Shown here: positions 26,627-27,559 of the stretch, piece after piece
Position numbering within the stretch: position 1 is the first letter of the stretch
How the letters are laid out: every line of letters begins with the position of its first letter
Assembly (NCBI GenBank): GCA_029244925.1
Contig: JAQWQE010000047.1
Location: forward strand, 1,515-65,514
Direction of reading: 5' to 3'
DNA: 64,000 nt
Source of the DNA: Gammaproteobacteria bacterium
Lineage (GTDB): Bacteria; Pseudomonadota; Gammaproteobacteria; Steroidobacterales; UBA11654
Notes under the pieces: generated by a model
Seen by the model: only the letters and a program-made list of their open reading frames with translations
Database searches by the model: none
What the model was told of the DNA's origin: nothing
Translations under genes and position numbers: made by a program

Positions 26627-27559
26627 ATGAGCTTAAAAGAAGAAAATGAAGATACTTTTGGCAAAGTAGCCGTTCTTTATGGAGGTCATTCTTCAGAAAG
26701 AGATATTTCTCTAATTACTGGTAAAGCAGTGCATGAAGCATTACTTAATTGCACTATAGATGCACATCTAATTGATACTAGGGATGTGTTTATTGATCAA
26801 TTGGTTCAAGAAGATTTTACATCTGCTTGGATTGCTCTCCATGGGTCTGATGGAGAAGATGGAAAAATACAAAGCGTACTTAGTTTATTAGGTATCAAAT
26901 ATACAGGGGCTAATACTTTAAGCTGTTCAATGACTATGAATAAGCTATTTTCAAAAAATATTCTTATTTCGAATGGCTTCCAAACTCCTGATTTTGTTCT
27001 TATAGATGATGAAAAAGACTATGAGCTTATTGTAAATAGATTAGAAATACCTTTTGTTATGAAGCCATGTTCTCAAGGTTCTAGCATCGGAGTATTCATT
27101 ATTAAAGAGAAGAAAGATTTTAAAGAAAAATTGAAAGAGCTTTTGCAATTTAACGATTGGATTATTGCAGAGAAATATTACAAAGGTTCTGAATAAACAG
27201 CAGGATTGTTAAATGGTGAGGTATTACCATTGGTAAAAATTAATGCTAGTAATGAAGAATTTTATAATTATGAAGCTAAGTATCTTAGCGAAGATACTTC
27301 ATATATATGTCCAAGCCAATTAGATCAAAATATAGAAAGCATCATTAAATAAACTTGTATAAATGTTTTTAATTTATTTAATATCAATAGCTGGGGCCGA
27401 TAGGATTTTTATATTAATGATGATAATCAACCTGTTTTTCTAGAACTTAATACTGTTCCAGGCATGACTTCACATAGTTTAGTGCCAATGGCTGCAAAAG
27501 AAGTGGGTATTAATTTTGATAATCTATGTTTAGAAATATTAAGAACTAGCATTGATTAA
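26627..27559 (+). pseudogene. ddl: D-alanine--D-alanine ligase reading frame interrupted by three in-frame stop codons (TAA 27194, TAA 27350, TAG 27401), with no frameshift
   Basis: My own translation of frame 2 runs gaplessly along E. coli DdlB (311 codons): VAVLYGGHSSERDISL, IALHGSDGEDG, PFVMKPCSQGSSIG, FYNYEAKYLSEDTSYICP, WGR*DF and [21 protein letters not shown]. The ORF track shows only the first 189 codons. Confidence 0.85.

Follow-up and report, generated by a model that had tools for sequence, protein, structure and literature searches.

The D-alanine--D-alanine ligase DdlB of Escherichia coli (PDB 2DLN/1IOV; family model PRK01372) is the closest described counterpart of the locus considered here, which lies in a 64-kb stretch of DNA (referred to below as the window, i.e. 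that stretch at its full length). The two are homologous over their full length, occupy the usual position between murB and ftsQ in the dcw cluster and share the conserved ATP-grasp motifs, but the window copy holds three nonsense codons. Stop-codon recoding systems, such as those that act on UAG or UGA in some phages and bacteria, are comparable in that UAA and UAG stand in-frame inside the conserved ddl frame, although the window locus differs from them since the replaced residues are not the same, a single gene is affected, the codons retain their terminator role and relatives do not share the stops. An ordinary point-mutation pseudogene is likewise a single disrupted gene in an otherwise intact genome; in contrast to such a gene, however, the ddl lesion bears no mark of age, being devoid of indels, private synonymous changes and any sharing with relatives. 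The analysis described below established that the stops in ddl are part of a one-off, localised burst of substitutions that is private to the window assembly, and the origin of this burst is weighed against what is known of assembly lesions, mutation showers and recent gene inactivation.

The ddl reading frame and its genomic context

The ddl frame (26627..27559, + strand) runs from an ATG at 26627 to a TAA at 27557-27559, comprises 310 codons plus this terminal TAA (311 codons) and is free of frameshifts. When the internal stops were masked, its product matched the NCBIfam model PRK01372 with 337 bits (cutoff 243) over residues 9-308 of 310 and aligned end to end with solved DdlB structures, and close full-length Ddl relatives displayed 93%, 88% and 90% identity. 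A preliminary description of this DNA had reported a gapless alignment with DdlB, which holds for the close relatives but not for E. coli-type DdlB, where small gaps are required. It had also placed a TAA at 27194, a TAA at 27350 and a TAG at 27401 in the frame with no accompanying indel, and the sequence confirms all three. They interrupt the frame at codons 190, 242 and 259, leaving a longest open reading frame of 189 aa where a DdlB gene would be uninterrupted. The ATP-grasp and catalytic motifs EAKY, WGRxD and LExNTxPGMT are all present in the frame, with the third stop taking the place of the x in WGRxD. As the stop at codon 190 lies upstream of each of these motifs, ddl as written would be incapable of encoding an active enzyme; based on the alignments and on established knowledge of DdlB, the predicted 189-aa product lacks the catalytic C-terminal half.

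The gene is embedded in a dcw-type cluster with the order mraZ-ftsZ-rsmH-ftsL-ftsI-mraY-ftsW-murG-murB-ddl-ftsQ-ftsA-lpxC...secA. This cluster (17676-30559) is rearranged in that ftsZ (18187-19320) is located between mraZ and rsmH rather than after ftsA, and neither the cluster nor any other part of the window holds murE, murF, murD or murC. Relatives down to approximately 70% nucleotide identity (L005-L007, labelled as Woeseia or Gammaproteobacteria MAGs) share this gene order. The possibility of a reduced endosymbiont that is shedding its cell wall, which the seeming absence of ftsZ and murC-F might bring to mind, was considered and rejected, as ftsZ is present at the position given above, murA is present and the genes as a whole match those of a free-living heterotroph. 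Across murB-ddl-ftsQ (25730-28310), synonymous divergence between the two sister clades (represented by L001 and L002) amounts to 0.33 for murB and 0.23 for ddl, as against 0.6-1.0 in the flanking genes, and the murB gene of the window is equidistant from both. To judge by these divergence values, the region 25730-28310 looks like the product of a recent recombination or sweep across species boundaries.

The remainder of the window is in good order: the 60 other long ORFs are full-length, as indicated by family matches or by the gene lengths of conspecific contigs, in agreement with the earlier statement that no other gene is disrupted. An apparent intergenic gap between rsmI and mraZ is filled by a bacterial class A RNase P RNA (17282-17615, + strand; 314 bits, Rfam). 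In a patatin-like ORF (6667-7812), apparent private differences at 7408-7414 were traced to a 9-bp indel polymorphism, the product measuring 381 aa in the window and L039 but 378 aa in the majority of conspecific contigs. The ORF at 59125-59796 (+ strand, 223 aa), which adjoins genes for an amidohydrolase and an MFS transporter, gave no strong Pfam match, and its conspecific counterparts of equal length matched Asp/Glu racemase families weakly.

Comparison with conspecific and sister-species loci

Conspecific contigs were located by exact-protein look-ups of the MurB, FtsA, SspA and SucD proteins of the window and of one further ORF, yielding many independent metagenome contigs with an identity of 98.7-99.8% to the window. 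The conspecific set comprises 25 independent metagenome assemblies (28 loci, including 3 duplicate records; 99.3-99.8% identity), whose sources span several oceans and projects. Sister species were represented by seven loci, namely four sister-lineage loci and three that were obtained from a 32-mer scan of metagenome contigs. The preliminary description had proposed orthologous loci in relatives as a check, and the comparison showed that the stops are private to the window assembly, being present in 0 of 32 related sequences (the 25 conspecific assemblies and the seven sister-species loci). All three stop sites are covered in every one of the 25 conspecific assemblies, each of which reads TAT, GAA and TTG there, and sense codons occupy these sites in 7/7 sister-species loci; with the four sister-lineage loci as reference, the three sites show TAC>TAA, GAA>TAA and TTG/TTA>TAG. 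An intact ddl of 310 aa is found in 24 of the 25 conspecific assemblies, the exception being L024, which has a 2-nt deletion of its own. The three matches that were returned when metagenome contigs were scanned with 32-mers for carriers of the stops were all intact, and an exact look-up of the 189-aa truncated product retrieved no record.

Every conspecific copy differs from the window at the same five positions of ddl (27196, 27350, 27359, 27402 and 27411). The first stop (codon 190, TAA, 27194..27196, + strand) is due to a private T>A change at 27196, where conspecifics have TAT and the seven sister-species loci TAC, both encoding Tyr. The second (codon 242, TAA, 27350..27352, + strand) results from a G>T change at 27350 in a codon that is GAA (Glu) in every relative, and the third (codon 259, TAG, 27401..27403, + strand) from a T>A change at 27402 in a codon that is TTG or TTA (Leu) in relatives. 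The remaining two changes are missense: T>A at 27359 turns codon 245 (27359..27361, + strand), which is TTA (Leu) in every conspecific contig, into ATA (Ile), and T>A at 27411 turns codon 262 (27410..27412, + strand), TTT (Phe) in relatives, into TAT (Tyr). The five substitutions, four T>A and one G>T, are thus confined to a span of 216 bp (27196..27411) and are all transversions and all nonsynonymous. Compared to the conspecific copies, the window ddl has no private change outside this span and no private synonymous change or indel, and the remainder of the gene matches alleles of the population.

The identity of the replaced residues bears on the suggestion, made in the preliminary description, that the stops are read through or suppressed. 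Reassignment, suppression or programmed read-through, by which a full-length Ddl would still be made, would be in keeping with the preserved reading frame, with the intact downstream motifs and with the fact that the three stops are all UAA or UAG. However, Tyr and Glu are the residues lost to the two TAA codons and Leu is the one lost to the TAG codon, the close full-length Ddl relatives also having Tyr, Glu and Leu at these positions, and a single reassignment is ruled out because three different residues are replaced. The earlier remark that each stop is a single substitution away from a Leu codon is qualified by the ancestral residues, which are Y, E and L and so not all Leu-like. Furthermore, 51 of the window's 61 ORFs, ddl among them, end in TAA (36) or TAG (15), in-frame stops occur in no other of these 61 ORFs, none of the relatives compared has the stops, and the window contains no tRNA, its sole Rfam match being the RNase P RNA. 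Recoding in any of these forms is consequently rejected as very improbable.

The clustering and nature of the private substitutions

The region 21.7-47.6 kb of the window contains 14 window-private positions, five of which fall inside the 216 bp of ddl. Taking the other 9 private differences in 25.7 kb as the background, the cluster has a Poisson probability of approximately 2e-8, or approximately 2e-6 when corrected for the number of windows. Private SNPs in the rest of the window occur at approximately 0.35 per kb and are mostly transitions, frameshifts are absent there, and no other T>A cluster was found in the comparable 58 kb. Clusters of private SNPs do occur in L021 and L033, but transitions and synonymous changes abound in them, as expected of recombination tracts, unlike the ddl cluster with its exclusively nonsynonymous transversions. 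The ddl changes are therefore both spatially clustered and nearly uniform in class, as would be expected of a clustered multi-hit event; a cluster of a single type such as this did not build up through independent changes. At least three stops among five changes has a probability of 0.0012 for random substitutions and of 0.014 given the observed mutation types, a mild excess that is inflated because the finding was selected for its stops.

Some local regularities were noted within the cluster. The four downstream changes form two pairs (27350-27359 and 27402-27411), with 9 nt within a pair and 52 nt between the pairs, and the heptamer AATAAAC arises at stop 1 as well as at stop 2; the 9-nt pairing and the shared heptamer may be due to chance in AT-rich sequence. 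A systematic, k-mer-specific error at AATAAAC was considered but is unsupported, since the window shows no further recurrence of private T>A changes.

Also weighed was mutagenesis of a templated or targeted kind, be it by template switching at a quasi-palindrome or by a diversity-generating retroelement (DGR). The G>T change at 27350 perfects a 10-bp inverted repeat (27344..27382) whose arms, ATTAAATAAA (27344-27353) and TTTATTTAAT (27373-27382), are 20 nt apart, and four of the five changes are at minus-strand adenines, reminiscent of DGR adenine mutagenesis. Against the former, the hairpin energy is the same with and without the change and does not surpass that of shuffled sequence (z ~0), and at the other four sites the ancestral bases fit any nearby direct or inverted template at least as well as the derived ones; owing to this unremarkable folding energy the inverted repeat is probably coincidental. 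Against the latter, there is no reverse-transcriptase domain among the ORFs of the window, and the stretch is invariant at these sites among the 25 conspecific copies. Such targeted mutagenesis is accordingly considered improbable.

All five changes can be read as the replacement of a purine by T on one strand (A:T>T:A and G:C>T:A). Transversions of these types are the class expected from the bypass of abasic sites (the 'A-rule') or from SOS-type error-prone polymerases, a class which would fit an origin in vivo and one in vitro alike. Mutation showers, error-prone patches and abasic-site bypass resemble the ddl cluster, which is statistically significant and nearly uniform in its substitution class. 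Its density of five changes in 216 bp is, however, far above expectation for known bacterial translesion polymerases, and an origin in vivo is only a candidate.

Selection on ddl

Polymorphism of ddl within the species amounts to four nonsynonymous and 14 synonymous changes (N:S = 4:14), with only conservative replacements, which indicates that the gene is under purifying selection, whereas the window-private changes stand at 5:0 (Fisher p = 0.004). Nearby genes for murein synthesis and cell division are undisrupted and have dN/dS values of 0.03-0.23. With ddl constrained and its neighbours intact, a triple-nonsense ddl should be strongly counter-selected, while technical errors are blind to function.

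A comparison restricted to sister species had given a different impression, as the N:S ratio of ddl on the window branch was 16:9 as against 97:346 in neighbouring genes (p = 1.5e-5) and pairwise dN/dS of ddl was approximately doubled in pairs that included the window. This would suit an established pseudogene decaying neutrally in a lineage for which this step of peptidoglycan synthesis is being lost or is covered by a redundant copy. Approximately 11-13 of those replacements are nevertheless common to all 25 intact conspecific copies, and relaxed selection on the window ddl was rejected as the explanation of the 16:9 ratio for the reason that most of the replacements are fixed in these copies. 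Old decay is excluded by the lack of indels, of private synonymous changes and of any sharing with related strains or species, and it also sits badly with private changes that are confined to 216 bp and with murA, murB, murG, mraY, ftsW and ftsI genes that are intact and constrained. The preliminary description had likewise argued against long neutral decay, and the absence of indels and private synonymous changes from a lesion seen in one assembly agrees with it; an established pseudogene is regarded as highly unlikely.

The Ddl of the species carries approximately 11-13 fixed or near-fixed replacements at sites that are invariant in sister species, examples being K10T, S46A, G54V, K65T, N86S, F134L, E136V, F220L, T225S and S235N. 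Evolution of the Ddl protein was accordingly accelerated on the branch leading to the species, in a gene that is nevertheless intact in all conspecific assemblies but L024.

Origin of the substitution cluster

The reading that we favour, with a probability of roughly 0.52, is that the burst is an artefact or lesion of the sequenced template and not a property of the working gene of the organism. The ddl of the species is of the ordinary DdlB type, intact, conserved and under purifying selection. A single event would then have introduced five transversions within 216 bp, three of which happened to make stops, and would represent either a lesion of the sequenced DNA molecule or molecules, arising for instance from damaged or amplified template or from a stretch with thin coverage, or else an error of the consensus. 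The burst would accordingly be technical or non-heritable and would not be carried by a viable lineage. This reading is favoured because ddl is under constraint in the species, with no backup gene in sight, because the alleles are ageless and occur in no other assembly, and because other assemblies of the clade show isolated lesions in essential dcw genes. The latter comprise two frameshifts in murB of L001 (9117-9991), two frameshifts in ftsW of L011 (1088-2195) and, in L024, the 2-nt deletion in ddl together with a split murG; these are probably assembly errors and provide a useful base rate. Local lesions of this kind in metagenome or single-cell assemblies are akin to the ddl lesion in being private to one assembly and blind to gene function, but those in L001, L011 and L024 are indels, whereas the ddl lesion consists purely of substitutions, with an unusual bias towards T>A.

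Several observations run counter to an artefact. Outside the cluster, the 64-kb sequence is of high quality, free of frameshifts and with an ordinary rate of private SNPs. There is no haplotype switch at the cluster, a common flanking haplotype being found on both sides of it, and hence no sign of a chimeric join. The three stops among five changes are somewhat more than is predicted from the mutation types (P = 0.014, for a finding selected for its stops). No standard sequencing platform is known to produce a consensus-level burst of T>A substitutions as a typical error.

The main alternative is a real knock-out of very recent date that is confined to one strain, in which a single multi-hit event inactivated ddl, e.g. 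through a patch of error-prone synthesis or through apurinic-site bypass giving purine>T changes by the 'A-rule', and in which the cell survives by means of a second ligase (for instance of the DdlA type) encoded outside the window. It stays plausible because the derived alleles stand in the consensus of a 64-kb contig that is clean elsewhere, and because a T>A burst is no typical platform error. Changes that are all A:T>T:A or G:C>T:A are what abasic-site bypass or SOS polymerases would be expected to leave. Many Gammaproteobacteria possess both ddlA and ddlB, and DdlA and DdlB of Pseudomonas aeruginosa are among the solved structures. Single-stranded DNA intermediates are known to be hypersensitive to mutagens (PMC13277962). 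On the other hand, the 64 kb contain no second ddl, no similar ATP-grasp ligase and no other mur ligase, ddl is under purifying selection within the species, and the five alleles are found in 0/25 other assemblies. The absence of any private synonymous change implies an allele that is essentially without age, and five changes in 216 bp (2.3%) is far above the error rates known for bacterial translesion polymerases. A recent knock-out is retained as a plausible explanation, though a less probable one than an artefact.

Recent inactivation and a local assembly or consensus artefact had both been put forward in the preliminary description, and both survive the comparison, except for the variant in which the consensus was drawn from a mixed population. 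That variant is unsupported because the five alleles segregate in 0/25 assemblies and the flanking haplotype does not switch.

Significance

Artefact and recent knock-out are both of already known kinds. The more far-reaching proposition that the sequence is correct, and that a viable free-living marine strain lost DdlB in one hypermutation event and lives on an unrecognised second source of D-Ala-D-Ala, is unlikely. If it were true, the second source would be a divergent ligase, uptake or cross-feeding, and the locus would preserve the footprint of a natural 'mutation shower' alongside an auxotrophy for a cell-wall precursor.

The case carries two cautions for the interpretation of such loci. 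In-frame stops that are seen in a single assembly should be checked against conspecific sequences before pseudogenisation or recoding is inferred, and a comparison limited to sister species was misleading here, since it pointed towards relaxed selection on the window copy. The import for the biology of the organism is small, given that the ddl of the species is normal and constrained and that there is no hint of a new genetic code, of recoding or of cell-wall loss. Should the alleles be real, they would constitute a modestly interesting natural example of a multi-hit cluster of a single mutation class that knocks out a normally essential gene.
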